DNA of 59,660 bases, the filler included, from Sphacelaria rigidula (taxonomy: Eukaryota), in assembly GCA_964200075.2 (NCBI GenBank). It is 8 parts of 8 records of this genome, joined end to end, with 100 filler letters (N's around TTAATTAATTAA, not from the genome) between each part and the next. Parts side by side here need not be neighbours in the genome. Positions count along the whole stretch, not along the records: positions 44,823 to 52,191 come from CAXNAA020015221.1; 7 more parts are not named here. One strand, given 5' to 3'. Position numbers and translations under genes: made by a program. Positions 7,372-52,806 of the stretch are shown here, piece after piece. The notes beneath the pieces are model-generated. The model was not told where the DNA came from. It saw only the letters and a program-made list of their open reading frames with translations, and did no database searches. Numbering within the stretch: the stretch's first letter is position 1; every line of letters starts with the position of its first letter.

Positions 7372-7471
7372 NNNNNNNNNNNNNNNNNNNNNNNNNNNNN
7401 NNNNNNNNNNNNNNNTTAATTAATTAANNNNNNNNNNNNNNNNNNNNNNNNNNNNNNNNNNNNNNNNNNNN
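7372..7471. other. Artificial contig linker (44N-TTAATTAATTAA-44N), 1 of 7
   Basis: 100-bp spacer with stops in all six frames. Identical copies at 14843-14942, 22313-22412, 29783-29882, 37253-37352, 44723-44822 and 52192-52291. The flanking segments are 7371-7369 bp in descending size order. Confidence 0.98.
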
Positions 7472-11358: not shown

Positions 11359-14300
11359 ATTGGGTACGTTAACGGGTTAGTTCGCACTTAAATCGTCACT
11401 CTGAGATGGCTGATCAAGACAGTACGGTTGGAGAATTAAAGGCGCTGCCTGAGGCACAGACGAGGATCTTGAATTAAAGCCTGTCGTGCACCGAGACTAC
11501 TCAGGAGAAAACAAGCGGACAAATACAAGGATATGTCGGTGGAGACCAGCCATCATATCTTGATGGTGCTGGGACCTGGGAGTGGGCAAGGTCCGCTTCC
11601 GGTCGTAGAGGTGGGGTCGTCATCGATAACCTGTTGCCAGCTGTCCGTGAGGTTCGGACTGCAGGAGGTAGCAATCTTGCAATAGCATCTAGGGAAATAA
11701 GCAGCATCAAAACTGCTGTCCCCGAGCTAGGAAGTACTATTGAGTTCCCGTTATGGAAAAGACGCTTCGAGAGTTTTGCTTCATCCAATGATTGTACGCA
11801 GGCTTTGATGACAGAGGTTATTGGCATGCACGTAGGTGACCCCTCGGTTACTTCCCGGTTTTTGCTCGACCAAGGTTTTCGTGAGACAAGCATGAGACGA
11901 GCACGTATGGCTGGGACGTGTTTGACTGACAACATCACGGACCGTCAAATATCAAGTAGGGTATTTGACACAAGCTCTCCGAGTGCAGGTTGGCGTTTCC
12001 CTTGTAATTGGTTTCTATCGAGAACCCTCTCCAGAACGTCGAAGCGCAAACGCCTTTTCAACGGATTGCGGATGGAGAAGAAGGAAGATCCGACTGAGTT
12101 TTTCACTCGCGTAGACAAGATTGCAGGTGTACTAGTACCATTAGGGGTACATATATATATATATATGCCATTTTTTGTCGCACTTTGAACCCCTCCCCTT
12201 CCTCGTGACGAGTTCGCGGGCTCAAGGGATCATCCCATCTCTCCCCCGGTACCTGTAGAAGATGTTAACCTGAAGATAGTAGAGGAACTCCCAACCGACT
12301 ACGGGTACGAGTAGGGTACAGTCTTGCAAAGAGAGAACATCACCCGAGTAAAGATAGAGACGAGTGTAAGATAGAGATACACGCTCATGTCTAGGAATGG
12401 TGCGAAGAACCGTAACGTAGGCCAAGCTCTCGTTACGAGCAAGCCCACCCGCCGAAGTCGCGGCCGGCCGAGATGGCGCTAAAGGTGGTAAGAGTGTTTC
12501 CAGAGGTACTATAGCGGGCAAGCACAACCAAAATATTGATACGAAAAACGAACGAAAGAAGTACGACGACATGCAAAATAAGCGTCACCGCTGCTTATGG
12601 CCAGGGCGTCGATGGTTCGGCTGTACCGCACACGCCATCATCCCAGTCGCGAAGAACTCACAGGGCGGTCCCAGTGATGTGACAGCGTGTTTGTCGATTG
12701 GTACGTGAAGTAACAAGAATATGGTGAGAGAGCGCGATAAAAGTAAGGATAGTACTGAAATGTGGATGGCTGATAGTGGTGCGACGTTTTATATGGCTTA
12801 ATCAGCTGACTTGCTCCGCGACGTGCAACAACCAGAGGATAAGGTTAACATCGGCAATAACACCTTCATCAACGTTGATGGTTATGGGTCGTTGACTGTA
12901 GTTTTCCCCTACAAGGCAGGGGGGATAACAATAAGGCTTGATAAGGTGGCATGCGTACCCGATTTGGCTTTCAACCGTTTTTCATTAGTGGCTGCGCACA
13001 GACGAGGAGTACGTTTCACAGCTCATGACTCGGATATGAGAGTGACTCTGCTGGATGAATGTCTTAGGTTTTGGCGTGGTGGATCTGAATGCGCAATCTA
13101 CGGTAAAAGGATTGACCCTGATGATGATTTCATCCCCTCTCCCTTGTTGGCTCCCGAGCCTGTCGAGAATTTACTGCAACCTGACCACCCTGTTCCCCTG
13201 GCGTCCTCTGTGATAGCCCACGGTAGTGCTGACTCACGTGAGACTAGCATCAACATTTTCCACTGCGTGCGGGGACATGCCAGTGAGTTTCTGTCAAGAG
13301 AGACAGCCAAATCGCTAGGTACAGAGTTACTGGGTGACTTGAGACCGTGTACAGGATGTTCTATGACGAAGGGGTACCGGACGCCGATCGCAGACAGCAC
13401 GAAATCTCGTGCTTCGCAAAAGCCAGGAAGAGTCTTTGCTGATCTTAGTAGTCCTACGAGAACTCCTTCATTGCTAGGGGAGAAATACGTGATGATGGCG
13501 TAGGACGACGTCACCCGGTACGCACGGGTATACTTTCTCAAGCACAAGTCTGTAACAGCATATTGAAGAAATTTTTGGCTGATGTACGTGCGGATGGTGT
13601 ACCTTCGGACGTAATAGTAGTTAGGTCTGATGACGGAGGAGAGTTTTTGCCATAATTATGAAGACGTGTGTAGGCACTACTGTATGAAGCAGGAATTCAC
13701 CTGCGCGAAGTGTCCGGAATTGAACGGCGTCGCCGATTGAGCTCTAGGTATCATTTACAACGCCGCACTTGTCGCTCGCATCCAAACCCCCATCCTATTT
13801 TCACATGTCGATCTGCTACCATCGGAAACACTCTAGACTGGGGTAATATATTGGGCGTGTGACGCCCTGAATCACACCGCGACGACGTCCAACCCAGGTA
13901 ACAAGTCACCGTACGATATGTGGCACGGTAAGACAGCACCTGCATCACCACACCCGTTTCTTCGTCCGAGCTATTGTCGCTGGAATCGACCGTCAAAGTC
14001 GTCCCCCAATTGCGAGAGTAACTTTTTCTACCTTGGATCCGGCATCGAGCACCACCGCGATTCATTGCGGATGCTGACGCAGGCGAACAATGTAGTGGGG
14101 ATGAGGAGCATCACCTGGGAGGCACCTCCGGTCATGGTGGTGCTGCCGGTACAACTGCAGCAGCCAGCTTCGCCGAAGCTGGCAGGGACGTCGGAGCTGG
14201 GAGGGACGTGATAGCCGAGAGGAAAGCCACCGCCGAGAGTGATGTCGGAACTGGGACAGACTCCAGAGCCGGGGGGGTCTAGTTGACTTCGATTCTGCCC

Positions 14301-14770: not shown

Positions 14771-14942
14771 CCTACGATAGGGGGTGTATTGATGATCATG
14801 CATGCCATAGTCATAAGACCATTGACCTCGCATCCCTACAAANNNNNNNNNNNNNNNNNNNNNNNNNNNNNNNNNNNNNNNNNNNNTTAATTAATTAANN
14901 NNNNNNNNNNNNNNNNNNNNNNNNNNNNNNNNNNNNNNNNNN

Positions 14943-17467
14943 TGTCGCGTCCTTCTGCTCTGTCGTTCTTCTGTTGGGGTGTATTTTGTCTGGTGGGGGG
15001 GGTTATGGGTAAGCGTACATGCCACAATGTGGTCGTTTTCATGAGGCACTAAACCCAGCTGGGCCGTGGAAGGAAAGAAGGAGCTATCGTCATCCGTTGC
15101 GCCCATCCTGCCTTTCAGAACACCGTAAAAAATTATGTAGTAGCCGGGGACGAAGAAGCAATGTATATGCAGCTGGTCTCGGTAGCTGCGAACTGTCCAG
15201 GACGTACAAGGGAGTAGGTAGCGGCCGCTGCTGCTGCAGTCGGAGAGGCGTACTGCACTGCACTGCACTGCATGTATGTGCGCCGTGACGCCCACCCTCC
15301 GAAGAGAATTTTCCGCTTGCAACAAAGAGGGAAATCGCGGCCCACCCCGACCACGAAGGGCTGTGCGGCGAATTGATGGGGACGGTATTATCATCCGAAG
15401 CCACAAGTGGCGGATGGCCCGCCGGTCGCCACATCCTGTTGAAAGCTCTCTACGGCGACCCATAATGCTTGTTACATCAGATGTACATGACCTAATGCGC
15501 ACCCCACCCGAGTTACAGTTTGTACCTGTGTTGTGTGCGTGTTGTCGTTCTATCTATTCTGGACGACGATCTACACCTTTCGGTATATGTTAGCGCACCA
15601 GCCAGGGTCACGCAGGAGGAGGGCCAGCACAGGAGTTTCTTTCTTGGGTTATGGCCTAGAAAAGGTATACCTTCTCGTTTTTTGCCCAAGAGCGGTACGA
15701 AAAATCGCCATAAACGCGATAACAGCAAAACACGCCATTTAGACCGTTTTCGCTCCGAATTGTTCACGCACAGCAATCGGGAGGGCCCTTGACACCCGGG
15801 CCTCGAAAAAAATAACGGAAGTATAAACATGTTATTCGCGATATATGGCCACGCGAAAACGTACGTCTCGACTCCAGAAACCGCTTCCCCTTTCTAGGCC
15901 AAACATTCACTTGGTTTACCTGATTCAGGAATCACTTTTCAGTCGTACCTCATCTGGGTCACCGATCGGCCGAGAACGTACCTCTGCTAGACCATCTCTT
16001 TCTACACTGTACCTGATGCGGCACAGCGCACACAAGGGAGTTTCACGCCGACTCCAACCATGGCGCCCACACGTTCGACTCTTTTCCCACTCATTTGCAG
16101 TTCACGGATGCTACAAGGACCACGCCCCTTCCTCCCCGAAAATGGTCCCTGAGTCTCCCCGCGTCGGTCATTTGTGATGCGGGGGGTTGTAAACACCGTA
16201 CTGCTGCGATCTCGGGGCTGGTGTCAGGGTCAAGCTAGGCTCTTCTGTCACAAACCGGCGGTTGTCGCATCAAACATCGATGCTTGGTTCAAGCAACGGA
16301 TACAGTACTGGCCGTCACGCATATAGAAATAGGGACAGAATAGTGGTAGCGTTCAGCACTGCAGCGCAGAGTGCGCTCAGCGCAAGAACACTCGCGGAAC
16401 ACATCCATCGCGTCTATCGGGTCCGTGCATAGCAATCACCAACGGCCAGTGAGAAATTCGGATTTCGTCCGCGAAAGATACTGTAGTGCTGAACGCACTC
16501 AACAGTGGATCCTGGAAAATGGCGTCGATCTCAAAAATGAGGTTCAAGTGGCATATCTGTTTTGTAGGGATGACGAGAAATAGTTACACAGAACGAAGCC
16601 ATATTTCCCCCCAAAACTCTGCAGCAGTGAATCAGTTGTGGCTTGGTGCACCGAACGAATGCGGTGTACACGCGTGTCGATGACGATATCACCAGAGAGA
16701 GAAGCAACGACAGAGAGGAAGCTCTTCGCCCGTGTCCTTTGTGTGTCCTCGCTCGGCGATTACCAACCGCTCGAGAGACTGGCATGATGCATGTTATCAG
16801 CATGTACCCAATTTCTTATGTGCCAGTAGGCATGTTATTATGTTGGTGCCCACAGCCGCCCAGAGAACATCGAGCTGCGGAGAGGTTTCGTCTCTTCTTG
16901 TCTGTGGAGCTCACCAATGCGAAGATCGATTTCTCTCTGCCTCTAATTTTGGACAGGACGCGCCTCTGTGCGCTGAAAAACATGTTGAAAAACAGGGCAA
17001 TGTTCCCGTCACCGCTACTACTGTTGTCTGTCACATACATGCCAGCAAGGACGGTGCGCTGCGGCAATAATAACAGATCCAGCTTGAGCTTGGGGGGTGT
17101 TATTCATCGTTGACTTTACCCGACATGACATAGGTGACTATCCAGGTGCCCGCGCACAAGAGCCTGCTACAGGCCGGTTGGGGTGTGTATGTGTGAGAGA
17201 TCAAACACTTGTGGAGATCTTCTTGACATGCGGAGTGAAAAGAGATACCAATGGTGGTGATCTAACTGTCGCTATCGTGGTGCAGAGGGGTGCGACAATG
17301 CTGCGAGCTGGAGCTTTCGTTGCTCTACTCGACTGACTCCCGTCTGGAGAGAGGCCACCCACCGTAACAACATGTTACGTGCCGAAGTTTGGAACAGCTA
17401 TAGAAACGAAACAGTTCAATTTTCTAAACTGCGTCCACATGATTGAAATGCCTCTTCTTACCTGAGG
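14943..17467 (+). repeat. Left arm of 2525-bp inverted repeat spanning contig 3
   Basis: Reverse complement of 19788-22312 (paired coordinates sum to 37255; all ORFs are mirrored). One mismatch seen, at 17261/19994. Confidence 0.97.
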
Positions 17468-19787: not shown

Positions 19788-22312
19788 CCTCAGGTAAGAA
19801 GAGGCATTTCAATCATGTGGACGCAGTTTAGAAAATTGAACTGTTTCGTTTCTATAGCTGTTCCAAACTTCGGCACGTAACATGTTGTTACGGTGGGTGG
19901 CCTCTCTCCAGACGGGAGTCAGTCGAGTAGAGCAACGAAAGCTCCAGCTCGCAGCATTGTCGCACCCCTCTGCACCACGATAGCGACAGTTAGGTCACCA
20001 CCATTGGTATCTCTTTTCACTCCGCATGTCAAGAAGATCTCCACAAGTGTTTGATCTCTCACACATACACACCCCAACCGGCCTGTAGCAGGCTCTTGTG
20101 CGCGGGCACCTGGATAGTCACCTATGTCATGTCGGGTAAAGTCAACGATGAATAACACCCCCCAAGCTCAAGCTGGATCTGTTATTATTGCCGCAGCGCA
20201 CCGTCCTTGCTGGCATGTATGTGACAGACAACAGTAGTAGCGGTGACGGGAACATTGCCCTGTTTTTCAACATGTTTTTCAGCGCACAGAGGCGCGTCCT
20301 GTCCAAAATTAGAGGCAGAGAGAAATCGATCTTCGCATTGGTGAGCTCCACAGACAAGAAGAGACGAAACCTCTCCGCAGCTCGATGTTCTCTGGGCGGC
20401 TGTGGGCACCAACATAATAACATGCCTACTGGCACATAAGAAATTGGGTACATGCTGATAACATGCATCATGCCAGTCTCTCGAGCGGTTGGTAATCGCC
20501 GAGCGAGGACACACAAAGGACACGGGCGAAGAGCTTCCTCTCTGTCGTTGCTTCTCTCTCTGGTGATATCGTCATCGACACGCGTGTACACCGCATTCGT
20601 TCGGTGCACCAAGCCACAACTGATTCACTGCTGCAGAGTTTTGGGGGGAAATATGGCTTCGTTCTGTGTAACTATTTCTCGTCATCCCTACAAAACAGAT
20701 ATGCCACTTGAACCTCATTTTTGAGATCGACGCCATTTTCCAGGATCCACTGTTGAGTGCGTTCAGCACTACAGTATCTTTCGCGGACGAAATCCGAATT
20801 TCTCACTGGCCGTTGGTGATTGCTATGCACGGACCCGATAGACGCGATGGATGTGTTCCGCGAGTGTTCTTGCGCTGAGCGCACTCTGCGCTGCAGTGCT
20901 GAACGCTACCACTATTCTGTCCCTATTTCTATATGCGTGACGGCCAGTACTGTATCCGTTGCTTGAACCAAGCATCGATGTTTGATGCGACAACCGCCGG
21001 TTTGTGACAGAAGAGCCTAGCTTGACCCTGACACCAGCCCCGAGATCGCAGCAGTACGGTGTTTACAACCCCCCGCATCACAAATGACCGACGCGGGGAG
21101 ACTCAGGGACCATTTTCGGGGAGGAAGGGGCGTGGTCCTTGTAGCATCCGTGAACTGCAAATGAGTGGGAAAAGAGTCGAACGTGTGGGCGCCATGGTTG
21201 GAGTCGGCGTGAAACTCCCTTGTGTGCGCTGTGCCGCATCAGGTACAGTGTAGAAAGAGATGGTCTAGCAGAGGTACGTTCTCGGCCGATCGGTGACCCA
21301 GATGAGGTACGACTGAAAAGTGATTCCTGAATCAGGTAAACCAAGTGAATGTTTGGCCTAGAAAGGGGAAGCGGTTTCTGGAGTCGAGACGTACGTTTTC
21401 GCGTGGCCATATATCGCGAATAACATGTTTATACTTCCGTTATTTTTTTCGAGGCCCGGGTGTCAAGGGCCCTCCCGATTGCTGTGCGTGAACAATTCGG
21501 AGCGAAAACGGTCTAAATGGCGTGTTTTGCTGTTATCGCGTTTATGGCGATTTTTCGTACCGCTCTTGGGCAAAAAACGAGAAGGTATACCTTTTCTAGG
21601 CCATAACCCAAGAAAGAAACTCCTGTGCTGGCCCTCCTCCTGCGTGACCCTGGCTGGTGCGCTAACATATACCGAAAGGTGTAGATCGTCGTCCAGAATA
21701 GATAGAACGACAACACGCACACAACACAGGTACAAACTGTAACTCGGGTGGGGTGCGCATTAGGTCATGTACATCTGATGTAACAAGCATTATGGGTCGC
21801 CGTAGAGAGCTTTCAACAGGATGTGGCGACCGGCGGGCCATCCGCCACTTGTGGCTTCGGATGATAATACCGTCCCCATCAATTCGCCGCACAGCCCTTC
21901 GTGGTCGGGGTGGGCCGCGATTTCCCTCTTTGTTGCAAGCGGAAAATTCTCTTCGGAGGGTGGGCGTCACGGCGCACATACATGCAGTGCAGTGCAGTGC
22001 AGTACGCCTCTCCGACTGCAGCAGCAGCGGCCGCTACCTACTCCCTTGTACGTCCTGGACAGTTCGCAGCTACCGAGACCAGCTGCATATACATTGCTTC
22101 TTCGTCCCCGGCTACTACATAATTTTTTACGGTGTTCTGAAAGGCAGGATGGGCGCAACGGATGACGATAGCTCCTTCTTTCCTTCCACGGCCCAGCTGG
22201 GTTTAGTGCCTCATGAAAACGACCACATTGTGGCATGTACGCTTACCCATAACCCCCCCCACCAGACAAAATACACCCCAACAGAAGAACGACAGAGCAG
22301 AAGGACGCGACA
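19788..22312 (-). repeat. Right arm of 2525-bp inverted repeat spanning contig 3
   Basis: Mirror of 14943-17467. Confidence 0.97.
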
Positions 22313-23573
22313 NNNNNNNNNNNNNNNNNNNNNNNNNNNNNNNNNNNNNNNNNNNNTTAATTAATTAANNNNNNNNNNNNNNNNNNNNNNNNNNNNNNNN
22401 NNNNNNNNNNNNAATGGTTAAATGACTAAGGCAAGCAAAAAATGAGGACGCCCCCCCCCCCCCCGTCATTTAGGGTTGGCGTCGGTTGGCAACGACGCTG
22501 TAAAGTACGTCAACTCACGGCGTGAGGTGGACAACCATGTCACCGGTCTTCTCGCGGTAATCATGATGGTGGTCGAGCTAGATCATGTTGTGCAGGGGTG
22601 GGAGAACCTCAATTCCGCGCAAAAGGAATCATCATCCCACGTGGTGTTTATATGGTGAGACACCCATGAGGCAGTGTATAACCCGTGGCGGTCTATGGAA
22701 GCGGCGACACCAGAAAATGAAGCAACTAATTGAAGGCTGTCATCCATATGCAAGATAATCAGTACACTTCGAGTCGAACAATTTTAGCAGGATGCAGCTG
22801 ATCTTTCATGCGACTCGCTGAGCACACAAAGGCGCTCCGCGCTCGGTGTTTGATTGTGAGTCTGGTCCGGCGAAAACCCGATGTACTCCGTCCTGGCTTT
22901 GTAGGGATGCGAAGTCAATGATCGTATGGCTACGGTGTGCAAGATCATGAGTACACAAACCTCGAGGACTCAGTGCTCGAGCGCCGTTAAACAGCCTCCC
23001 CACGGATCTTGAATCGTTGTTGTAAGATCAAAGTCATACTGGGCTGCTTTTATTCAAGATTTCACGCATATGTCGAGGAGTGCGCGCCCGCTCCCTAGGA
23101 GATAAAACAGGACGATTCTACATCATTTCAGGGTGGCTCGTACCCATAACCCTCAGGAAGCGTAGACCACAACCCCGTTTGGTCCGACACGGGGACGTGG
23201 GGAGAGAAGGGAGATGCTACGTAGATCAGTGTTATCATTCACCATATTGCAGATAGTAAGTTATTATCCCAAAAAAAACTACCCGAGCTGTCGGCACGAC
23301 CTGGGCTGTTGAGCAACCGCAAGGCATATCGGTATAACAAACTCAAGTCAATGGCACGCAACAAATATCGGGGCGCTCCGCGGACAGAAATCAAGCAAGC
23401 AAGCAGTAATGATGATCACTCAATCAATCAATGTCCTCCTCGTAATTTTAATAAACCTTCGTACCTTTGCTCTTTGGTGTTTTGTGATTTTGCCGTATTT
23501 CCTGAAACCTTGTATCAGCTTATCGTCTAAAAGCTTTTTTTTTTTTTCTCTTATTTTTTCTCGTTTTCATCAG

Positions 23574-27540: not shown

Positions 27541-30500
27541 TTTATCGTTGCTGCTGTGTGTGGTAGTGCGATGATGATCAGGGTGGCGTTGTTTTTGTGG
27601 CAGTACTGTACGTAGCAATGTTTTCGTGAGATCGATAGTGAAAAACAGTCAACTAGTTATTGAATCGTTTTAGTTCCGAAATGCCCCTCCACGAGGCTGG
27701 CTCGGTATGCTTTCCGTAGTAGCTTGCCATTGAGGCCCTTGATATCCCTGAGGAGGATATCGACGTTTAGCTGTAAGCACACGCCAGTGATGAAAGACGA
27801 AGAAAAGCACAAACGAAATGAAAAATTGGCCAAGTTTAAGTGAATGATCATAGCTACTCTCAATCAGCGCTCTACTCTCACTCTCACGAATACGTTCTCA
27901 CGTGTGGCGATTGCGACCGGGTGTATTGTACAACAACAAAAATGTAGGATCTCGTTGTGCGGTACACCTACAGTACAGTTGACTTGAAAAACGAGCCATG
28001 TGACTTGGGTGCAGTTGTCCTTTCCCATTTTCACTTGTTGGTTTCGTTCTGTGATGAGATTTGTCAAGAAGGAACTCTTCGTGTTCGTAACGGAGGGCGA
28101 ATGGAAAAAAACAGGAAAAATTGTGAAGAGCAAAAAGAAAAAAACTTTCCGCGCGCGCACAGACAGCAGCTGTGAAATGTTCTTGTTTTCATCAGGGTGT
28201 GGTCCACCAAAGCGCGACTGAAAGACTGGGGGGGAAGCGCGTGTGACGTCCTCGTATTGGCCGTTTTAGTACCCTCGGCCTGTTGCGGGCCCTGACAGTC
28301 TCGTGGAGGATGTCGATCTTGTAAACGAGAAGGACCTGGCAGGACGTCCGGACGCTGAAACAGTTCACGTCCCGTCCTCCCCGACGAATATTATCACAGC
28401 AGGCTGACATGATTTGAGCAGCCAAGATGGGGTTACGTTGAAATATATATAGCTTGTGTTATACGACGCTTACAGCGAGCAGGATGGCTGCGCCGTGTCC
28501 TGTTGACGTTGCCGCTGGTACTTACAACAGCGCGGAGACGCACACAATCGCCATTGCAGAGCAGCTACTGCTGGTAATAACGCAAGCATTACTGGGAGAG
28601 GGCACGAGCCATGTGCAAGGCATAGTCGAACAGGTCCGGACCCCCTTGGTTACACGAAGGCGCTGTCTCTTCCGCCCACACAACGATTCCAAACCCCCTG
28701 CGAAGGAATAAAAAAAGGATCCTGCAGGCTCATGGGGGCCACAGGGGTTAACGCTGACATGCGCACACGGCCGTTTGGCTGCCGATCACTGCAGTCACGG
28801 ATTCTCTGTCGGAGGTGCCCTTTGCAAGACTAGCTGATGTAGCTGCACCTTGGCTTGTCGGGCTTCGCGGGGCGCAACCCGAGTACATCCACCACTCATC
28901 AATGTCCCCAGGTTGTTGCTTACTCTCACGAACACCAAAACAGCAGGGGAATGAATCACTGAAAGGAAGAAGGAAAAAAACGCGCCCACAAGACAGCAAA
29001 ACGACACCTGAATGGATTAGTGAAAAATACTGTAATGCAAGGACAATATATCGCTGACGCAGGCACCCATCCGAATGCTGTTGATCCAAAGCGCAAGAAG
29101 CTACTACACCACCGGAACTGACTGCCGTATACCGCACACATACACCATCGAGTGGAAAGACAAGAACCACACACTCCCGCTATTATCGTGAATCAGCGTA
29201 CTCTATATCGAGAGTGGGGCGGGGGATAACGCCCTGGCGTCTATCCGCACACCACAAGCAAGTATATGTGCCCAGGGAATGCTGACGACCAGTAAATCAG
29301 GGTCCTCACATAACTTCACGTCTACATACATACGCATCTGCTCGGGTCGGGGCGACCGAAGTCCCCTGAGCGTGTTGTGACACAGGGGCAACTTCTTTCT
29401 TCTTCATACGCATAGTTCTTGATACTGTTGATCATGAAAAAATGTATGGTGACGTGACATCCAAACCTTCCCGACAGGCTTCCTTGTGTCGTGATGAAGA
29501 TCGACAATATCCTAACCCTCATGAACAACCCAGTATCCAGATGAGTTCGTTGCGGAGCCAGTGCCTGCACACGGCCGTCCACGTTCATGGAAACCCTTGG
29601 CCATAAATTTTACGAACACCCGGCTACCGTAAACCGATCCTCCTTGCTTGCACTATGATCTCGAGGCTCTCATCCATGTGCAAGATAATCAGTAGGCCTC
29701 GGGCCGAACAGTCTTAGCAGGATGCGGCTCACCCGTCATGCGACTCGCTGAACACACCACGGCGCTTCGCACTTGGTGATTGNNNNNNNNNNNNNNNNNN
29801 NNNNNNNNNNNNNNNNNNNNNNNNNNTTAATTAATTAANNNNNNNNNNNNNNNNNNNNNNNNNNNNNNNNNNNNNNNNNNNNCCCGGTAGATCACAGACT
29901 GGGATTCAGTACTGAGCCTGGGTGAAGAGGGAGAGAACCACCCCCCCTATGACCCCCCCCCCCCCCTCTGCCGTATCTCCTTGTGCACACGAAGATATGA
30001 AAGTGGTTTGCGTTTTTTCGTCCCGAGGGTACAGGGTCGGACTTGTACTGTGTCATTGGTTCAGCTATTGGCGTTCTCAAATCCTCAAAGGCTGTTATGT
30101 CGTTCTGGGGCGTGTCTCCGCGAAGCTCCTCATTGAAAATGAGTATATAGTTCGAATTCCGATTTCTCGATGTTGCGCCCGGGTACGGTACCGGCGAAGA
30201 CATGGTACTTCCAAGGTTGCGTGCCGTGGGGTATACCCGCTGAAATTCGGGTAGTTGCAGGACTATGAAAAATATATTTTATCGGCAAATGAATACCCTT
30301 CTGACCCATATCGAAGTGTTCGAAACAGGGTTCGACACCCTGTCGATCTATACCGGGATGTTCGATCCACATGTCGGTATGGTTGAGTATGCCACCCAAA
30401 ACTCCCACGTCGGGGTATACCCTATATAACACAATCTTTGGTAAGTGACGTTCGGGATCATGACAACGAACAGCTGCGAAACGCTAATCGATCCAAGCAG

Positions 30501-36807: not shown

Positions 36808-37476
36808 TTTTTTTTCCAGCTGACACTTTTTTCAAGAGTTGGGGAAGATTTCATCCCTTGATGGTTTTATGTACGTGCATGAAGCGTATGGTTCACCAAA
36901 TAAGTTTCGTTTTGGTTTTTACGTACCTGTACGAAGTCCGGACGTTGTAGTATTCAGTCGTATTCTAATAATGTGTAAGGAGGTGTGGTTTTGCTACAAT
37001 GTGGACTTGGAGGAGGTGAGAAAAGCTTGATATTGGTTTCATCACCCCGAGCTCTCTGAACGTTGCGTCAAGGGAGTGGAACAAAACTCGCGTTCTTGGT
37101 GTCACGGTTAGAACGAATCATCACGACTAAGAATCATCAAATCCACGATTCCTTGGGCCTGATTGCCCAAAAGGGATGAAAAAGTTGATCGCTGGTCAAA
37201 GGGGTATCTACGCAACTTTTGCGCCACTCCACGTGTCTGGGCTGCGTGTACCNNNNNNNNNNNNNNNNNNNNNNNNNNNNNNNNNNNNNNNNNNNNTTAA
37301 TTAATTAANNNNNNNNNNNNNNNNNNNNNNNNNNNNNNNNNNNNNNNNNNNNCCCACTGTCCCGACAACAGGGGCAACCACGCTAAGGCGAGCCCCCCCC
37401 CCCTCCCCCCCCCCCCAAATAAAAATGAAAACAGGTGCTGGGAGCCCTTGCGACAACGAGATCGCTGCTTTGTAAG

Positions 37477-44722: not shown

Positions 44723-44879
44723 NNNNNNNNNNNNNNNNNNNNNNNNNNNNNNNNNNNNNNNNNNNNTTAATTAATTAANNNNNNNNNNNNNNNNNNNNNN
44801 NNNNNNNNNNNNNNNNNNNNNNCTGATGACTATGGCATGCATGATCATGAGTACACCCCCCTCCCCTCTCACCTTCATC

Positions 44880-46320
44880 GCTAGCCAGGAGCAAAGCGGG
44901 CCTTTCTCTCGACAATTTTGATGTTGAACTCCTCGCGAGCTGTTGTCATGGCTACTGTCCCATCGCTGGGGGCTCTCAAAATTGCGGCTGTCAATGCAAC
45001 AACACTTTGCCCATGACGTAGGTCGATTTGGCTTAGGTACTCGCATTGCCACGCCTCCTTGAACTCCGCCGCTCCATCCTCGACCCCCAGATGCCATTTA
45101 CCCACGTTCTTAGCGGCAGTGACTCAGCGTTGCGAGTCTTTCACCTGCACACGGCGAACAAATCACTTTCTTAGGCCTCCCTCGTGCGGGATAGCCCCTG
45201 CGGCATGTAGGTTCTCCTGGAGGCAGTCCCCTCAGTGTTTCAAAGGCGGTCAAGCTCATCGGACCCTTATGTGGCCAGCCGTCCGAAGATAATTCGCTAC
45301 GGGAGATGTGCTTCGCCCTGTACGATAAGGGCCTCCGCGAACCAAAATCGACGCTTGCGAATGGTCTTTTCGAAAGGTTCGCCTTTGGTCATCTCGAGCG
45401 CGGCCCTGTACGAAAGATTATTTTGTCCAGTGCTACCCTTCCTGCGGAAGCCAACTGCTCGCAGTAAAAGCTCGTAGTGGCCAGTGCGCAGGCTTTTGAG
45501 CCCTCTGGGCGCCACGTCTACGTAGCACATCCGAACAGCTTAGCTCATACCACTTGCACTTCGAGCAACCAGATTCTGAGAGTTTGTTGGGCATTGGGTC
45601 GATCGTACAGGCCATACTTCCGGACGCGCGCCCACGTGGAGCTGATGCAGTGCTTGATTTCGACAAAAATACAATATTCGCGTCTTCACTGACAGCACCA
45701 TGATTGAAAAACTCTGCCGTCTGTTTGTACCGTTTGCCTGCCATGTTGATGACCACCGGTCTCTGGGGAACTAGGTACTGACCACATGCACATGACCTCT
45801 GTCTTGTTCTCCGACACCGTGAGTCCCACAATCCTGGCAGACCACCACTGTCACGGCCATTGTCCTAGCAAGCCCGTCCGGGAACCTCAAGGCTGTGCTT
45901 GTATCATCCCCGTACGGCATTCCCCACACCGTGCGTCACATCCTCTCCAACGAGGCTTGTTCTGTGTGGTTTCCCATCCCCCAATATTTGGCTCATCACC
46001 TCGATGTGTTTTTGCTCCCCCCAAATCCCTGTTTGGTTCACGTTACTCATCGCCGCATTCGATGCCTCTCTATCGTTTATGCCAAATAATCATTCACAGG
46101 TGTTAGTGGGACTGCCCGACAACACCTATCATGATATTGCGGAAAGGTGAGGAAAATTCCTTCACAACCTGGAACGTGTCCAAATCGCTGTGGGCGACAG
46201 CATTAAGCGTGTCGCATACTTGAAGGCATCTACTTACTACCCTGGGTAACAAGTAAGTCTTTCAGAGATAGATTTTATCCTCCGTCGGCGAAGGTTGCGC
46301 GGCCGAAAGCTGTGCCTCTA
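44880..46320 (-). mobile_element. Decayed non-LTR retrotransposon (LINE, RTE-like) RT and C-terminal region; may extend to ~47300 (endonuclease remnant)
   Basis: Minus strand: HSFRPRN (xGFRP motif, ~46300), VWGMPYGDDT (degenerate YADD, ~45901-45929), PVVINMAGKRYKQTAEFF, GHYELLLRAVGFRRK...LSYRAALEMTKGEPFEKTIRKRRFWFAEAL, KWHLGVEDGAAEFKEAW. Many stops and frameshifts. Confidence 0.85.
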
Positions 46321-47307
46321 CACGGCGTCATCGAGATCGATGAACGGAAGCGGAAGCGATGGGTAAGTTCAGAGATTGGACGCCCGAAAGGGCACAGCTA
46401 AAACGCAAAACAAAATACCACGTGGCTCATTGACCACCTTTTCTCCGTCATTCCAGGCCGGCGGGCGTACTCATTTGTTGCTTGCCTTAGTCGTTTGACC
46501 ATTGACCACGCATCCCTATCTCTTTCGAGACGGAGCGGGGGGGGGGCATGAACAACCGGAAGCTTGATTTAAACGGGAGGCTGAATTAATCTTGCTGTGC
46601 AGCACATGACTCCGCAGCTCAGACATGTGCGTCAGACAGCGAAGTTTCTTTGTCGAATTGCCTGCTTCATCATAACAGCTGCACGTGGAAAGGTTAATCA
46701 TTGCGCCTGGCAGCGCAGAATTTCATTTCTCGTGGACTAGCTTTGTAACTTTATTGGCCGTTTTGCTCTCTGGAAAAAATGACAGAATGACGGAGAGGGA
46801 GCTACAGCACGGTGACGTGTTGGTCGAAGAGGGACAACCAATGCCGGCGGTTTTCCTGTAAGGACAAGACCAACTTGCAAGTACATGGCGAAGTTTCAAC
46901 CGTTTCTCCGCTGTCACAGGATAAGACGATCGCTGAGTGTTTAGCTATCCCGTACTGTAGAGAGACGGTTGGGGGGGATTTCTTCATATGCCGGGAGCTA
47001 GCCTGCGTTTTAGTTCCGTCTTTTGTGGCGAGGTTGCAGTGATGGTGCAAACGGGCCGTGCCCCGTAAGTGTTCTCGCCTTGCTTGTGCTCACCCTCGAC
47101 GGTCTCCGCGCTGTCCAGATACCAGAACGTGTGTTTGGACCATACGTACCACGCAGGTAGCAAGCAATCATGTGTATAGATTGTTGACAGGAGACGTGCA
47201 GCAAGCACAACCGAAAATACTGATACAGTCCACCGACGTGGTAGTTGGGTTTTTTCATGGACAAATCACCAGTATCCCGCGCACTATTTGCCATCACCAG
47301 TAAGTCG

Positions 47308-47345
<38 letters not shown>

Positions 47346-47353
47346 CGTGCTAG

Positions 47354-48103
47354 GGTGGAATCCGGCGTGCTAAAGCGCGTCAAGCATCACCGGGAGGGTC
47401 CCGGAGAATTTTTGGTGGATTGTAAGGAGGCGGGATCGGTAACCGGCTTGCTTCACGTCCTTACCCCCGGAGACTCGGATGCGGCCTTCGCCACTGTGAA
47501 AGCGGAGGGTGATGCCAAGGCGAGATAAATATATATATATATATATACAAGTACATACTTGAAGGAGTTTGAAAATAGGTGGCGTGACAAGGCAGGGGTA
47601 ACAGCCAGTATGACATTATTCTCCAAAATAATACAAACGCGAGATAGCTGACGTTCGAGTACCAACACGGCAACAGCAGTTTTGACGATGTGACTAGTGC
47701 AAAAATCACAGGGTAAATACTCCCGCTTGTTGTTGCATTTTGGAAGCTTTGTTGTTTTTACACATCGTGTATTCATCGGTCCCATGTACCATCTGAAGAT
47801 TTCCTTTCGGGTTGAAGAATTGAGCAGGTTTGGACGAACTGTGTTGCGGGCACTGCACGATAGCAAATATTTTTACATCGCCGTGCTTGTCCCTCAAGAG
47901 GCGGCAAAACACGTGGGGGTGTTGTCAGTGGGGATGGAAAAAACAAAGGACTGTATCGCCCCCCTCCCCCCCCCTCTAATGCCCTTCACCAGATGTGGGT
48001 TTCAGACGCTTTAATGAACTCATCCGACGCTTTTGTTTTTAGAAAGTTGAGCTACCCTGACGCGTTTTTATCGACCGTGCGCTATGTATGCATTTCTTTT
48101 GTA

Positions 48104-48146
<43 letters not shown>

Positions 48147-51100
48147 GCTCAACCCACGGCAAACGGTAAAACTACGTCACGAAAGGTGTGGTCTCTAGCG
48201 ACTGATGACCTGCTCCAGCTGCTCAAAACCACCCCAGACTTTGCTATCGCGGCGCTCGCCTCTCTGGCCAAGGATTTACGCAACCAAGCAAAGGCAAGGG
48301 AAAATAAAGCGTGTTGGTGCGAATTCCTCTCTGCATTGTTGTGGTGATATATCGTCTCATCAGGAGGGCTGAATTTGGCAGTGGGATGGAAATACTCGTG
48401 GTGTGGCGTGTATGCGCGAAAATCGATCAATCGGTCGACCAATCGCGAGCGACGCATTGAAACGTTTTGCCTTTTATGGAGTCCATGTGCTTTTTGGCTG
48501 TATGTGTTCAAACACACGTGCAGCCCCCCTCCCCCCCCCTATGTGGGTTTTGTTAAAAGTAGATGTTGCTTAACCTTGTCGGCCTCTTTCTTGTCGCGTC
48601 TTGCTGTCCAATTTAGCGTTTCAGGACTTCATCGCGAATTACCACGTGGTTCCACATTTCCCCGCGCGTCTGCCCCCCTCATAAAGTCTAGTGGCGGTTT
48701 CATTATCCACATTTCGCTTTACAGTTAGCTAAAAAAAATATCGCGCTGGCCCCTCCCCCAGACGTTGTCTGTGCTCACGAAGATGGCCGGAAAGAAAGGC
48801 GGAGACAGCTTCGAGGGCGTGAAAGTCATGTGCTACGACTCCACCGGTTGGGTGCGGGAGAACTTCCAGGCCAAGGCCGAGGAGCACAACAAGGTGTGAC
48901 GCACAAATATGTTTGCACTCTGGTTGTGTATGTGTATGCTTGTCTGTACCGTAAGCCGTATCCTACGACGCGCACCTTTGATGATACAGTGGGCGAGCAC
49001 GACGTGTTTGGGAGACCATGGAGTGTAACTGGTGGGGTGTTTTGCACACATCTACCCCCCCCTCCCCCAAGTGTAGCCAGTAGATCTTACGTATTCGTGG
49101 TTGAAACGGTCGGTTGAATGATTTTATAGTGAACACCCATGCTCGGATCTTTAGAGAGGCTGGCAGTCGCCAGTGCTCCTAGCTTGCCCAGAAGGCGCTA
49201 TCGTCCACGTCGACGCTGCAGACGTCATTTTGAGGGTCTGCCAAGGCACACGCCATATTTTATAGAGCATCCTTAGAACCTCCCTTCCCCGAGGCTTCTC
49301 GTATGCCTGGGGTTGGGGTTGGGATTCGGGTTGGCGTTACTTCGAAATCGGTAAATTTCCGATAGCGTTCTGTCAACCATTTTCTCAACAAACGAGCAAA
49401 CACGACTCAATATAACAATGTAGTACGCAAGTGATGACCGAACAATACAAGCAGCTGGCGATGATGGCTTCGCACCTCACAAATTGTGTCCGCAGTAGCT
49501 GAAACTCTCGCAATCTCCTGAAGAAACAGCAAGCATGCGTGTTCTCCACCGGGTTTCGTATCGTGAGGTCATTCGCGATATGCTCGATCGGTGCGCAGGT
49601 TGTTCGTTTCGCTCCCTCGTATGTTATTTGTACAATTTTCTCCCTTCCCTGCCCCCATTTCTTTCTTGCCAGAACGCGAGCCCGAAGGAACAGATAATTG
49701 TGGAGTACACGTCGGACACGCTTAGCATCTCCTCCATTTCATTGGCAGTCGGGTGAGAGGCAGAAAAAGTTGAGATGCAAGCGAGGACTTGGGAACGTAA
49801 AAACTGATACACACAATGGCGACGCAACGACGGTAGACTTCTGCGCGTCCCCGACTGGACGAAAACATTTTCCGACGAAACATTGTGCGTGCAGAAGGAT
49901 CTCGTGCGGTGTACGGACAAGTTCCTTGGATCGATTACCTGCGTTCCAAGCCATGGCCCTACGGACGTCACGCAGCCGCTGATGTCCAAGATTGAATGAG
50001 CACGGCACACCGTGAGATGCAAGCTTTCACCTATCTGTATGTTTGAGTCTACTACTGTACTCTACAGTCATTGGTCTGTGAATGTTGAACCCGTCCTCCG
50101 GTGTCCTTGTGCTGGATGAAAGGTATGACGTGGTGTGCTTGTTTGTCAACGACGAGGCGGACGGAGAGATCCTCAAGTCGCTTGGGGTCTTCGGAGTCGG
50201 CATGGTGGCTCTCAGGTGAGCAAACCCTGTTGCACCCGTGCACGAGCCGTCCCACAGCAGGGGTGAGAGCCAATTTGTTGTCCGAAGCCAGGAGATCCAT
50301 GGGTGTGATGTACAACGACAATTTGTTTTTTTGTTTTTTTGCCACACTTCGAACCTCTCCCTCTCCTCGGGAATAATCCGTAGCCTCCAGGGGTGAACCT
50401 ACTTTCCTGCCGGCACGAGTCTTGCATGTAGATATCGCCGATGGGAGAGGCTCTCTCGCGCTTCGTCGAATATCGTCGAATAAAGTCGCTTGCGACCCAA
50501 GTCCTCCCCTTGTTAACGATGGAAATGAGATACATGTCAGAATAGAAACACACAACTGCACCTGCCGGAAATTGAAGCCGTATCCTGCCGATTAAGCTTG
50601 GTCCAGCTGAACCTAATTGGACCGTCGGAGCGCGGCCTCTGTACGCGCATTTTCGCGGGGTATTCTGTCGTCAAAGAAATTTCGACATTTCGCTGAACGT
50701 CGATGTGAAGATCACTTGAAGTACTGTTTACTGCGTTGAGCAACGCCGCTCAGTTTTTTTAGTTCGAGCGACACCCGTGGCCGATCCCCCTTCCCTCCGA
50801 CCTTGGGGTGGCTTCTGTGACCATCCTCCGATCGTGAGTTCCGAACTAGGAGGCGTGGGCGTCGTGGTTGGGTAGGTCGGTGCAGTAGCTGGTCGGGGGC
50901 GAAGTTGTGGCCCGAGTGAACACTCGGGAAAACAAGGCAATGGGTTGTTTGTTCTGCTCGCGTATCTCGCAAAACGGTCACGGGTTTTGAGCGCACAGTA
51001 GCGTTGGAGCATGTGCGTGCTGTGCGAAGGGCCAAGTGTATGTGAGGAGATGAGGATGTAGTTCCGAATCGACGCATTTCGAGATTTATTTAATCTGTGG

Positions 51101-51338
51101 CACTTGGGTGGAAGCACGGTGTGAAGCGCAGGAGTCGAGATCAGCAGCATCAAGTCAAGAACTACGCGTGGAAGAATGGCATGAGACAGTGTGATTCGTG
51201 GCACGGTGCTATATGCATGGTATGACAAAACGTGCCGTATGACCACGACGTTGTTCTCAGGTGTGCCGGATTCGACAAAGTGAACGTCCCTGCCGCGCAG
51301 GCCTTGGGCTTGACTGTAGCCCGGGTACCAGCCTACAG
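47354..51338 (+). CDS. ldhA: Partial spliced gene: cNMP-binding domain fused to NAD-dependent D-lactate dehydrogenase (D-2-hydroxyacid dehydrogenase, LdhA-like)
   Basis: Six phase-consistent exons: 47354-47519 (VESGVLKRVKHHREGPGEFLVDCKEAGSVTGLLHVLTPGDSDAAFATVKAEGDAK), 48186-48293 (VWSLATDDLLQLLKTTPDFAIAALASLAKDLRNQAK), 48762-48893 (TLSVLTKMAGKKGGDSFEGVKVMCYDSTGWVRENFQAKAEEHNK), 49673-49752 (NASPKEQIIVEYTSDTLSISSISLAVG), 50123-50215 (YDVVCLFVNDEADGEILKSLGVFGVGMVALR), 51261-51338 (CAGFDKVNVPAAQALGLTVARVPAY). The motifs VCxFVND, ALRCAGF and VxRVPAY are diagnostic of LdhA-type enzymes. Exons 1-2 match the CNB beta-roll plus hinge/C-helix. The 5' and 3' ends were not found in the contig. Confidence 0.9.
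48105..48143 (+). repeat. (CT)n microsatellite; others include (GTT)n at 47306-47345 and (TA)n at 2586-2603, 31701-31722 and 47529-47546
   Basis: Directly visible. Confidence 0.95.
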
Positions 51339-52806
51339 GTGCGGTCTCACCGTAACTCCCGAAAACTAGGCAAAAACAAGAGTCAATGCTCTCAATAGGT
51401 GTCGTTATATTCATGGTGAGCTTTCAATTTAGTTGGAGTAAGTACCGCTTCTTGTCCAGCTTTTCGTGCACTACCTGCCACAGACAGCCATATATGTATC
51501 CTAAGGCTTATTGCTGCCGCCGCGAACTAACCCACAGGTATGCCATCTTGTCTCAGTGCACGACAACGCCAACCGTCGTTGCCTCTGCTCGTGTGGGGCA
51601 TGTGTACGTAATCGGAACCGAAGCTGGGTTTTTTTTTCGGAGTCGCGTTCAAGATTCTCATGACAACGGCTTGCTTGAACATTATGAGGCGAGACACCAT
51701 TTGTGAATAGATCACCCTGTGAAACACTGACCGACACGGTATCTGCAGATCACCTTCTATCAGTTTGCGATCCCGACTTTGTCTTTCGGTCGTCAGGCCT
51801 AACTTCGACTACATACATCTCGTGCACGCATGCATAGAGCCGAGATCACTGTGTGGGGAGGTAAAGTGGAAGGTTGACGCAAAGAATAATGATAATATCC
51901 GAATCGAAACGTAGCTCTGATACGCACGGATCCGTTGTTAAACGGATAAAAATGTATATGCACCCGAGAAAACTGGCGATGCTTAAAGCTATTTACGAAC
52001 TGCCGAGACGTGGACAGGTAACGAGAATACACACGGGAACCTTGGATGAGAGAAAAAAAAAAGCCTAAACGCGACGTACACATCCCGACACAACAACACA
52101 CCCAACACTCAGGACCAAGTCGAGCCACTTCCCCCCCCCCCAGCCGCCACACTCTCCGATGCCCGGTAGCACAATGCTGTTTGAATTTCATNNNNNNNNN
52201 NNNNNNNNNNNNNNNNNNNNNNNNNNNNNNNNNNNTTAATTAATTAANNNNNNNNNNNNNNNNNNNNNNNNNNNNNNNNNNNNNNNNNNNNCTCCGGGTT
52301 CTCATCCTCAATGAAAAGCACCATCCTCAACATAGATGATCGGCTGTTGTGAGTAGGAACCGACGATCAATACAGAACAGGCTGCGTCTGGGGCTAATAT
52401 ATCACTTTTACTTGGCAGTCCAGTGTTGTCCTTGATTCATTGATTGATTATCACACATTTGCCTCACAAAGGAAAGAAGAAAGGAAGCAGCGAAAACAAC
52501 AAAAACAACAGCACCACCACCACCAACAACAACAAAAAACAACAAAAACGAGAACAAACAAAAACAGCAATAATAACAACAAAATGACAACAAACATAAC
52601 GCCTATTGACTAAAATATCGAGTAGCATGCACCCTCCGTGATACTTCTGATGAGTACAGCTTCTAGAGCTTCACTTGGGTATGACCTCAATACTCTACTC
52701 AAATTTTGAGTAGATCGAGTATGATCTCAGATGCTCCAGTCAAATATGGAGGAAGAACTGTCAGTAATCTTGTCAGTAATACCTGAGTATAGACTATTAC
52801 TTGAGT

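Follow-up and report, generated by a model that had tools for sequence, protein, structure and literature searches.

The gene and its exons

The window considered here is a stretch of 59,660 nucleotides of DNA from the alga Sphacelaria rigidula (assembly GCA_964200075.2). Within it lies part of one gene whose product very probably joins a domain having the cyclic-nucleotide-binding (CNB) fold to an LdhA-type D-lactate dehydrogenase (D-LDH). A sequence-only reading of the window had drawn six exons here, the first two assigned to a CNB module and the others to the start of the dehydrogenase, and had suggested that the protein may be a ligand-gated switch, an NADH sink that would tie second-messenger or metabolite signalling to dark or anoxic fermentation.

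The exons were placed by comparison with homologous proteins and by Logan contigs from sequencing runs called here X1 to X8. Runs X1-X4 come from one study; their RNA status is the guess of a tool, and none of them is recorded as RNA. Runs X5-X8 come from a second study and contain 60-99% of the sampled words. Three RNA-like runs (X1, X2, X3) and one DNA-like run (X5) were compared across the block of the window that holds the gene, positions 44823-52191, a eukaryotic, intron-rich region. In X1-X3, bins that bear exons have depths from hundreds to about 1000, against 0-14 in bins that hold only intron; the depth of X5 is flat across the block, at about 20-40. This contrast, and the spliced joints that have no counterpart in X5, are the grounds on which X1-X3 are treated as RNA. 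The exons are as follows.

46100-46146, plus strand: upstream exon encoding VLVGLPDNTYHDIAE(R), where the CNB-like domain begins (joint 46146/46786 in X1-X3)
46786-46857, plus strand: upstream exon encoding (R)MTERELQHGDVLVEEGQPMPAVF(L), the first CNB-like beta strands (homologue matches, contigs)
47354-47519, plus strand: exon A, the CNB beta-roll containing the altered cassette (homologue matches, RNA-like contig depth about 1000)
48186-48293, plus strand: exon B, CNB helices B and C, VWSL...LAKDLRNQAK (joint 48293/48762)
48762-48893, plus strand: exon C, encoding the linker (TLSVLTKMAGKKGGDSFEG) and then the opening strand of the D-LDH catalytic domain, VKVMCYDS... (homologues, contigs)
49673-49752, plus strand: exon D, D-LDH catalytic domain (homologues, contigs)
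50123-50215, plus strand: exon E, D-LDH catalytic domain, YDVVCLFVND... (homologues, contigs)
51261-51338, plus strand: exon F, D-LDH catalytic domain, CAGFDKV...VARVPAY, final exon within the window (PF00389 at E 2.3e-5 alone)

Each of the six exons A to F is matched colinearly by four full-length homologues (tblastn, per-exon E 1e-4 to 1e-16). Together with the spliced joints, these matches bear out the six exons in one continuous frame, with their ends slightly corrected. The assignment of the first two of the six to a CNB module stands as to type, but not as to extent, as the module starts upstream of 47354, in the exons at 46100-46146 and 46786-46857. Exon A begins in codon phase 2, and an upstream exon is therefore, of course, required. 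Exon A carries the motif GLLH at 47445-47456 and, at 47484-47486, an Ala in place of the cassette Arg. When the two upstream exons are included, the spliced product has 258 residues and begins VLVGLPDNTYHDIAERMTERELQHGDVLV...; its match to P0001, a 518-residue EukProt protein that serves below as the reference orthologue, has a blastp E of 5e-113, far past chance.

Every intron ends in an AG acceptor. Donors are GT, apart from GC at 47520 (AAG/GCGAGA) and 48294 (AAG/GCAAGG), that is, in two of the seven introns wholly inside the block; the second of these is confirmed by the RNA-like contigs. A GT donor at 47508/47509 was rejected, as joining it to the only acceptor (48185) gives a stop after six codons. 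An apparent CNB-like open reading frame (ORF) further upstream, at 46961-47068, falls inside the intron 46858-47353 and can be dispensed with. Microsatellites adjoin the splice sites of exon A: a (GTT)13 tract at 47307-47345 ends 8 nucleotides before its acceptor, and a TA run at 47520-47558 starts just past its GC donor. A (CT)19.5 tract at 48106-48144 lies 41 nucleotides before the acceptor of exon B.

Transcription and splicing

Five spliced joints are listed directly in the RNA-like runs, and none of the five in the DNA-like run X5.

46146/46786: GT..AG, depth 2294 / 855 / 1031 (X1/X2/X3)
48293/48762, from CNB to LDH: GC..AG after a 2-base ambiguity is resolved, depth 1768 / 920 / 675
48893/49673: GT..AG, depth 1768 / 775 / 675
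49752/50123: GT..AG, depth 1239 / 775 / 675
50215/51261: GT..AG, depth 987 / 775 / 675

The joint 48293/48762, which the earlier reading had drawn, is thus seen in all three runs (675-1768), and it places the CNB-type and the LdhA-type parts on one spliced mRNA. That the parts belong to a single message is, in our judgement, very nearly certain.

The joints 46857/47354 and 47519/48186 do not appear in this list because the microsatellites that flank them ((GTT)13, the TA run and (CT)19) were skipped. Here, the support is indirect. A 303-nucleotide contig (depth 1010 in X2 and 857 in X3) carries exon A at its positions 33-192, and its length equals 29 + 166 + 108, the sum of the last 29 bases of 46786-46857, exon A and exon B. 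Contigs that retain introns begin at 46829 and 48264, which are the branch points expected of the graph. The length of the 303-nucleotide contig therefore fits both joints, and 47519/48186, the other junction drawn in the earlier reading, has this fit in place of a direct listing.

The ends of the gene

Runs of N recur about every 7470 bases across the window, which consists of eight blocks of about 7.37 kb separated by identical 100-nucleotide spacers, each of 44 N, TTAATTAATTAA and 44 N.

44723-44822, no strand: spacer, 5' border of the gene's block
52192-52291, no strand: spacer, 3' border of the gene's block
7372-7471, 14843-14942, 22313-22412, 29783-29882, 37253-37352: the other spacers

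Blocks that adjoin here may lie apart in the genome, and nothing that spans a spacer is to be taken as contiguous. Both ends of the gene lie beyond its block, whose last base is 853 nucleotides past exon F. When the homologues were compared with the whole window by tblastn, residues 1-22 and 286-518 of P0001 had no match on either strand; the loose-end sequences that continue the transcript past the first and the last exon of the block (5', as a 25-mer, and 3') likewise have zero matches each in the window. The exons for the NAD-binding domain, and at least one 5' exon holding the start codon, are outside this block. The NAD-binding domain seems to be missing because of how the window was put together, and not because the gene is truncated.

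The loose ends themselves continue the protein. Past 51338, about 255 more nucleotides encode, in frame, (S)PYAVAEHAV, the same sequence that follows VPAY in the orthologues. Before 46098, the loose end encodes ..NVAKLLKDSK in frame, which resembles RLLKDSK at the N-terminus of the Ectocarpus protein.

The dehydrogenase part

The window encodes about the first 120 residues of the dehydrogenase part. Exons C-F are the first half of the catalytic domain and are colinear with residues 168-285 of P0001. Exon F alone matches PF00389 (E 2.3e-5, 24.5 bits against a cut-off of 24.6), a family that P0001 matches at 84.6 bits. The NAD-binding domain, PF02826, occurs in all orthologues, and the contig that extends past 51338 enters the sequence encoding the start of that region.

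The solved structures place the enzyme within its superfamily. The best relatives of P0001 in the PDB are LdhA-type D-LDHs (4cuk/4cuj, 5z1z/3wx0, 5z20 and 5z21, E 3e-87 to 6e-76), followed by the D-LDHs of Lactobacillus at E about 1e-51. All of its top 13 PDB sequences, at E 3e-87 to 4e-50, are named D-lactate dehydrogenase, putative D-lactate dehydrogenase or D-isomer specific 2-hydroxyacid dehydrogenase. Enzymes acting on phosphoglycerate, glyoxylate and formate are much weaker, those for phosphoglycerate and glyoxylate having E values of 1e-39 or weaker. The best NCBIfam hits of P0001 are D-lactate dehydrogenase models, below their equivalog cut-offs. All 13 full-length fusions compared share, without exception, the catalytic Arg, Glu and His (R420, E449 and H481) as well as the glycine-rich loop; the three catalytic residues all lie outside the window. 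The proposal that an LdhA-type catalytic N-domain follows a short linker is thus upheld, with D-LDHs such as 4cuk, 3wx0 and 5z20 (E about 1e-87) as the nearest solved proteins.

The fold of the N-terminal domain

In P0001, a Pfam scan finds cNMP_binding (PF00027) at residues 42-135 with 42.1 bits, where the cut-off is 27.5, together with PF00389 and PF02826 (156 bits). Two more distant fusions, P0022 and P0029, score higher against PF00027, at 48.2 and 50.0 bits. A profile built from nine fusion N-domains matches chains of PKG, PKA and CRP with E values from 4e-20 to 1e-6.

An AlphaFold model of the P0001 N-domain alone (pLDDT 82, pTM 0.72) shows the CNB strand order, with the beta-roll, a short helix in the cassette and, at the C-terminus, a long one. 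Foldseek places this model with 2pqq, GlxR, the CRP of Mycobacterium tuberculosis and CAP, at TM 0.72-0.80 and probability 1.00. That the orthologue N-domain has the CNB fold is not in doubt, and the profile and structure matches expected by the earlier reading are thus present in the orthologues.

Homologues and spread of the fusion

P0001 was found with the 55-residue translation of exon A. Its N-terminal 175 residues led to P0003 (EukProt), to P0004, the Ectocarpus siliculosus “2-hydroxyacid dehydrogenase,” and to P0005, an “unnamed protein product” of Pylaiella littoralis, each of which has PF00027, PF00389 and PF02826. These four proteins are 510-565 residues long. The 258-residue product of the window is 59-64% identical to them end to end (E 1e-103 to 1e-113; 64% to P0001), while the brown-algal group is 79-86% identical to P0001. 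By sequence identity, the window product stands outside the close group of these four, yet nearer to that group than to any other relative recovered.

Ten more distant fusions are 32-38% identical to the window product. When the 148-residue N-domain of P0001 was searched exhaustively with HMMER, 407 representatives reached E <= 0.001, of which 150 were listed, and 36 of these, picked by length and by the location of the match, were scanned with Pfam. The 2-Hacid_dh domain is present in at least nine (9 of the 36 scanned), a count that is a lower bound; six of the nine also pass PF00027 at E <= 1e-4. The remaining scanned representatives have other CNB architectures, for example with patatin, histidine kinase or GGDEF. 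Among the fusions, P0022 is a EukProt Trinity transcript labelled Sappinia pedata, and P0029 is a 492-residue ORF on a 1594-nucleotide Logan contig, which means that it reads without introns; the other fusion representatives are metagenomic. A search based on P0158 returned seven relatives of 377-576 residues and P0061, a partial form from the cluster of P0158 itself. These relatives include P0164, “D-lactate dehydrogenase [Fistulifera solaris],” from a diatom, which is 35% identical to the window product. Precomputed Pfam assignments see the CNB part only in P0035 among the eight rows of that search. In the ESM Atlas, the N-domain found no fusion clusters, only generic bacterial CNB clusters with a score of 0.95.

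Brown algae and at least one diatom thus have the conserved fusion in common, and it probably extends past both. The guess that the architecture already sits unannotated in stramenopile proteomes was correct: it is found in Ectocarpus and Fistulifera under plain dehydrogenase names, and the searches made here add Pylaiella, the EukProt orthologues and the distant fusion labelled Sappinia.

An altered cassette

The segment that holds the ligand in PKA is changed throughout the family. In the HMMER alignment, the G-E-L-A...P-R-A-A-T-V of PKA lies over G-L-L-H...P-A-F-A-T-V in the fusions, so that Leu (or Gly), His, Ala and Phe stand at the positions of Glu, Ala, Arg and Ala in PKA regulatory subunits; set against a Toxoplasma CNB protein, the fusions likewise have Leu or Gly for the Glu and Ala for the Arg. 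Single-sequence alignment offsets the first motif by one residue and likewise leaves it without the Glu and the Arg. The cassette Glu, which contacts the ribose 2'-OH, and the cassette Arg, which contacts the cyclic phosphate, each occur in 0 of 20 fusion sequences, the window product included (P0061, identical to the start of P0158, was left out of this alignment). All 20 have G-x-x-H. Directly behind the cassette Gly stands L, F, I, M or V, in no case Glu; where the Arg would be, 18 sequences have Ala, one has Cys and one Ser, and the next residue is Phe or Tyr throughout. In brown algae, the cassette is also 3-4 residues longer.

An alignment of nine N-domains has only nine invariant columns. 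Five of these (G, L, H, A, T) fall in the cassette; the others are two glycines and two arginines, R70 and R152 in P0001 (R50 and R132 of the part submitted).

A paper on kinetoplastid PKA regulatory subunits (PMC10959531) identifies A202 and R209 of PKA RI-alpha as keys to ligand specificity, with the Arg neutralising the cyclic phosphate, and reports that the kinetoplastid proteins, in which both positions have changed, bind nucleosides instead of cAMP. As the fusion family has altered both positions, and has lost the Glu as well, canonical binding of cAMP or cGMP by its N-domain appears, from the sequences, unlikely. Gating of the enzyme by cAMP or cGMP is therefore not supported, both contact residues being replaced in every one of the 20 fusions. 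The pocket peculiar to the family, with G-x-x-H ... A-[FY]-A-T and a pair of invariant arginines, would instead point to another small molecule.

Alternative readings of the locus

Might the locus hold two genes, or a mis-joined model, so that a small CNB protein would precede an independent LDH beginning with the Met of exon C (48783)? There is indeed an in-frame ATG in exon C, the frame read through the donor at 48294 stops 18 codons later, and contigs that retain the intron 48294-48761 exist, at the low depth of 9-14. But the joint 48293/48762 is about 100 times as deep as the retained intron. Further, the Met in the linker of the window product (TKMAGKK) lacks conservation: the linkers of P0001 and P0004 contain none, which rules out a start of the LDH part at this point in those species. 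Finally, the same fusion recurs in the intron-free Trinity transcript and in the Logan contig of P0029. The two-gene reading, and with it the CNB exons on an mRNA of their own, is therefore highly improbable. So is a truncated pseudogene that lacks the NAD-binding domain, for which the unmatched residues 286-518 of P0001 are the argument; against it stand the spacer-joined construction of the window with its block end so close to exon F, the contig that continues past 51338 as the orthologues do, the high expression and the intact frame.

The role of the N-terminal domain is less easily settled. A canonical second-messenger switch, in which cAMP or cGMP bound to the CNB domain turns pyruvate reduction on or off, would suit a domain that, in the orthologues, is a true PF00027 member with the CNB fold. 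It would also suit the tandem of GPCR (G-protein-coupled receptor), pkA and ldhA in Phaeodactylum, for which PMC12512433 speculates about a link between lactate and cAMP; that paper makes no mention of a CNB domain in LDHA. The missing Glu and Arg, the second being the neutraliser of the cyclic phosphate in PKA (PMC10959531), and the longer brown-algal cassette speak against such a switch, and we consider it improbable. One might instead suppose that the module is ligand-free, a degenerate CNB-like fold kept only for the dimerisation, stability or localisation of the D-LDH. The lost cyclic nucleotide contacts, the long C-helix that resembles the dimerisation helix of the CRP family, and the small number of invariant columns all agree with this. 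Those columns, however, cluster in the segment equivalent to the cassette (G, L, H, A, T) and in the C-helix (R), and they do so across sequences that are only 25-33% identical to P0001. Such clustering looks like a conserved pocket rather than a scaffold alone, which makes the ligand-free module rather unlikely, if less so than the second-messenger switch.

The preferred reading

The reading that we prefer, with a probability of roughly 0.6, is that the block carries the central part of a nuclear gene, expressed and split into many exons, from a brown-alga-like stramenopile. Its product would be a protein of about 500 residues, composed of a CNB-fold domain with long B/C helices like those of CRP and of a complete LdhA-type, NAD-dependent D-LDH. 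The dehydrogenase would reduce pyruvate to D-lactate using NADH. The N-terminal domain would be a regulatory module, a dimerising module or both, and would act via its conserved C-helix (E-[LM]-R-x-x-[ST]-K) and the short flexible linker. This action might be a ligand-dependent autoinhibition or activation, or a CRP-like dimerisation atop the LDH dimer; the ACT domain of SerA and the CNB domain of cAMP-regulated enzymes offer analogies.

The ligand, if there is one, would not be cAMP or cGMP bound in the canonical way. The chances that the domain has a ligand-dependent regulatory role with some other ligand seem about even. A more specific suggestion, to be taken as tentative, is that the domain senses some metabolite other than a cyclic nucleotide. 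This could be a 2-oxoacid, say, or an organic acid or other small anionic compound, and the invariant cassette His and the arginines R70 and R152 (P0001 numbering) might hold it.

Several points weigh against the preferred reading. The fold and the Pfam classes were tested on orthologues, not on the spliced product of the window itself, and neither the NAD-binding domain nor a start codon is seen within the window. Pfam run on single window exons gave no family for seven of eight pieces, exon F being the exception; single exons are too short for Pfam, of course, and this null is not evidence against the domains. The full-length model has a pTM of only 0.59, with linker residues 155-171 at low pLDDT, and shows no fixed contact between the domains. 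The RNA-like evidence comes from Logan contigs of a single study under a guessed label, and, because contigs cannot show where transcripts start, a minor LDH-only isoform that begins at the exon C Met may exist. The 20 aligned fusions are mutually related, some are partial, and two (P0167 and P0168) are near-duplicates. Catalysis and regulation are, for every member of the family, inferred from sequence.

Comparison with known systems

In the orthologues, the catalytic and NAD-binding domains can be aligned along their full extent with the LdhA-type D-LDHs (LDHD subfamily) 3wx0, 4cuk, 5z20 and 5z21 (E about 1e-87), and the Arg, Glu and His are invariant. Those solved enzymes, however, are stand-alone proteins of about 330 residues, whereas the fusion family has about 170 extra N-terminal residues, which make up the CNB-fold domain and the linker. 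The N-domain shares its fold and its Pfam family with the CNB domains of PKA and PKG regulatory subunits and with the regulators of the CRP family. It differs from them in the cassette; in the numbering of PMC10959531, Ala 202 of PKA RI-alpha has become an invariant His, and the Glu that binds the ribose and the Arg that binds the phosphate are lost.

Kinetoplastid PKA regulatory subunits (PMC10959531) provide the precedent for a CNB domain whose ligand was switched via the positions of A202 and R209. There, Ala became Glu and the ribose contacts were kept; in the fusions, Ala became His and the canonical Glu was lost as well, so even a nucleoside ligand is uncertain. As an enzyme design, the fusion is comparable, by analogy, to SerA with its ACT domain, that is, to a 2-hydroxyacid dehydrogenase with a fused regulatory domain. 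SerA, a D-3-phosphoglycerate dehydrogenase, belongs to the same superfamily, and its fused small-molecule-binding domain controls velocity allosterically (PMC6303947). The regulatory domain of SerA is C-terminal, has the ACT fold and binds serine; the extra domain of the fusion family is N-terminal and has the CNB fold.

The database entries P0004, P0005 and P0164 have the two-domain architecture and the cassette signature of the window product, which is only partly in the window and shows less identity to the four brown-algal entries than those show to each other. The window gene is thus a new member of an unstudied family whose architecture is already visible in databases. A literature search, which did not cover subscription journals and supplements, found no paper describing a CNB-D-LDH fusion. 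In a 2018 classification of D-2-hydroxyacid dehydrogenases, the words “cyclic,” “cNMP” and “fused” do not occur. A 2025 paper describes over-expression and silencing of ldhA in Phaeodactylum and places GPCR, pkA and ldhA in tandem (PMC12512433); “cyclic” is nowhere in its text, and the search did not extend to its supplementary Fig. S15, which gives domain predictions for P. tricornutum LDHA.

Other features of the window

In the gene's block, two segments (44823-44866 and 46463-46517) have word depths of 10^4 to 10^6 in RNA-like and DNA-like runs alike, and numerous variable joints and loose ends rich in G or C attach to them. They resemble a repeat of very high copy number with homopolymer-like tracts at its borders. 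On the minus strand at 50052-51423, three long stop-free frames (152-231 residues) lie inside the 1045-nucleotide intron. The longest has no Pfam hit and an RNA-like depth of 0-4, and these frames are probably not genes.

The C-rich motif CCCCCCTCCCCC, counted with at most one mismatch, occurs 38 times in the window, where 0.22 occurrences are expected. Exact copies stand in three successive introns of the gene (47959-47970, 48524-48535 and 49057-49068), and ATGTGGGTTT follows two of these three intronic copies within about 35 bases.

Elsewhere, an ORF at 12802-13500 (plus strand) has a weak match to the beta-barrel domain of retroelement Pol polyproteins (Pol_BBD, PF22936) at E 9e-6, just under the cut-off, and is probably a retrotransposon remnant. 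Pfam scans of 13 long ORFs elsewhere in the window gave nothing but this fragment. One block contains pairs of ORFs of equal length on opposite strands, 14891-15553 (minus) with 21702-22364 (plus) and 16631-17113 (plus) with 20142-20624 (minus), and a translated segment that is identical at 15928-16011 (minus) and 21244-21327 (plus). This arrangement suggests a large inverted duplication centred near 18.6 kb; the three of these ORFs that were scanned had no Pfam hit. ARAGORN found no tRNAs in the window.

Significance

Brown algae and diatoms rank among the major primary producers of the sea, but little is known of their fermentation and overflow metabolism. With a sensor domain built into their D-LDH, these organisms would have direct post-translational control over the fate of pyruvate and NADH. 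The diatom “ldhA” genes that have been over-expressed and silenced (PMC12512433) may bear this N-terminal domain unnoticed.

The altered cassette would be a natural example of the CNB fold turned to a new ligand, to be set beside the nucleoside-binding PKA of kinetoplastids. Should the N-domain in fact be a sensor of a metabolite, the fusions would make up an ancient family of heterotropically gated D-LDHs, conserved in brown algae and diatoms, and would add a new class of ligand for eukaryotic CNB domains.

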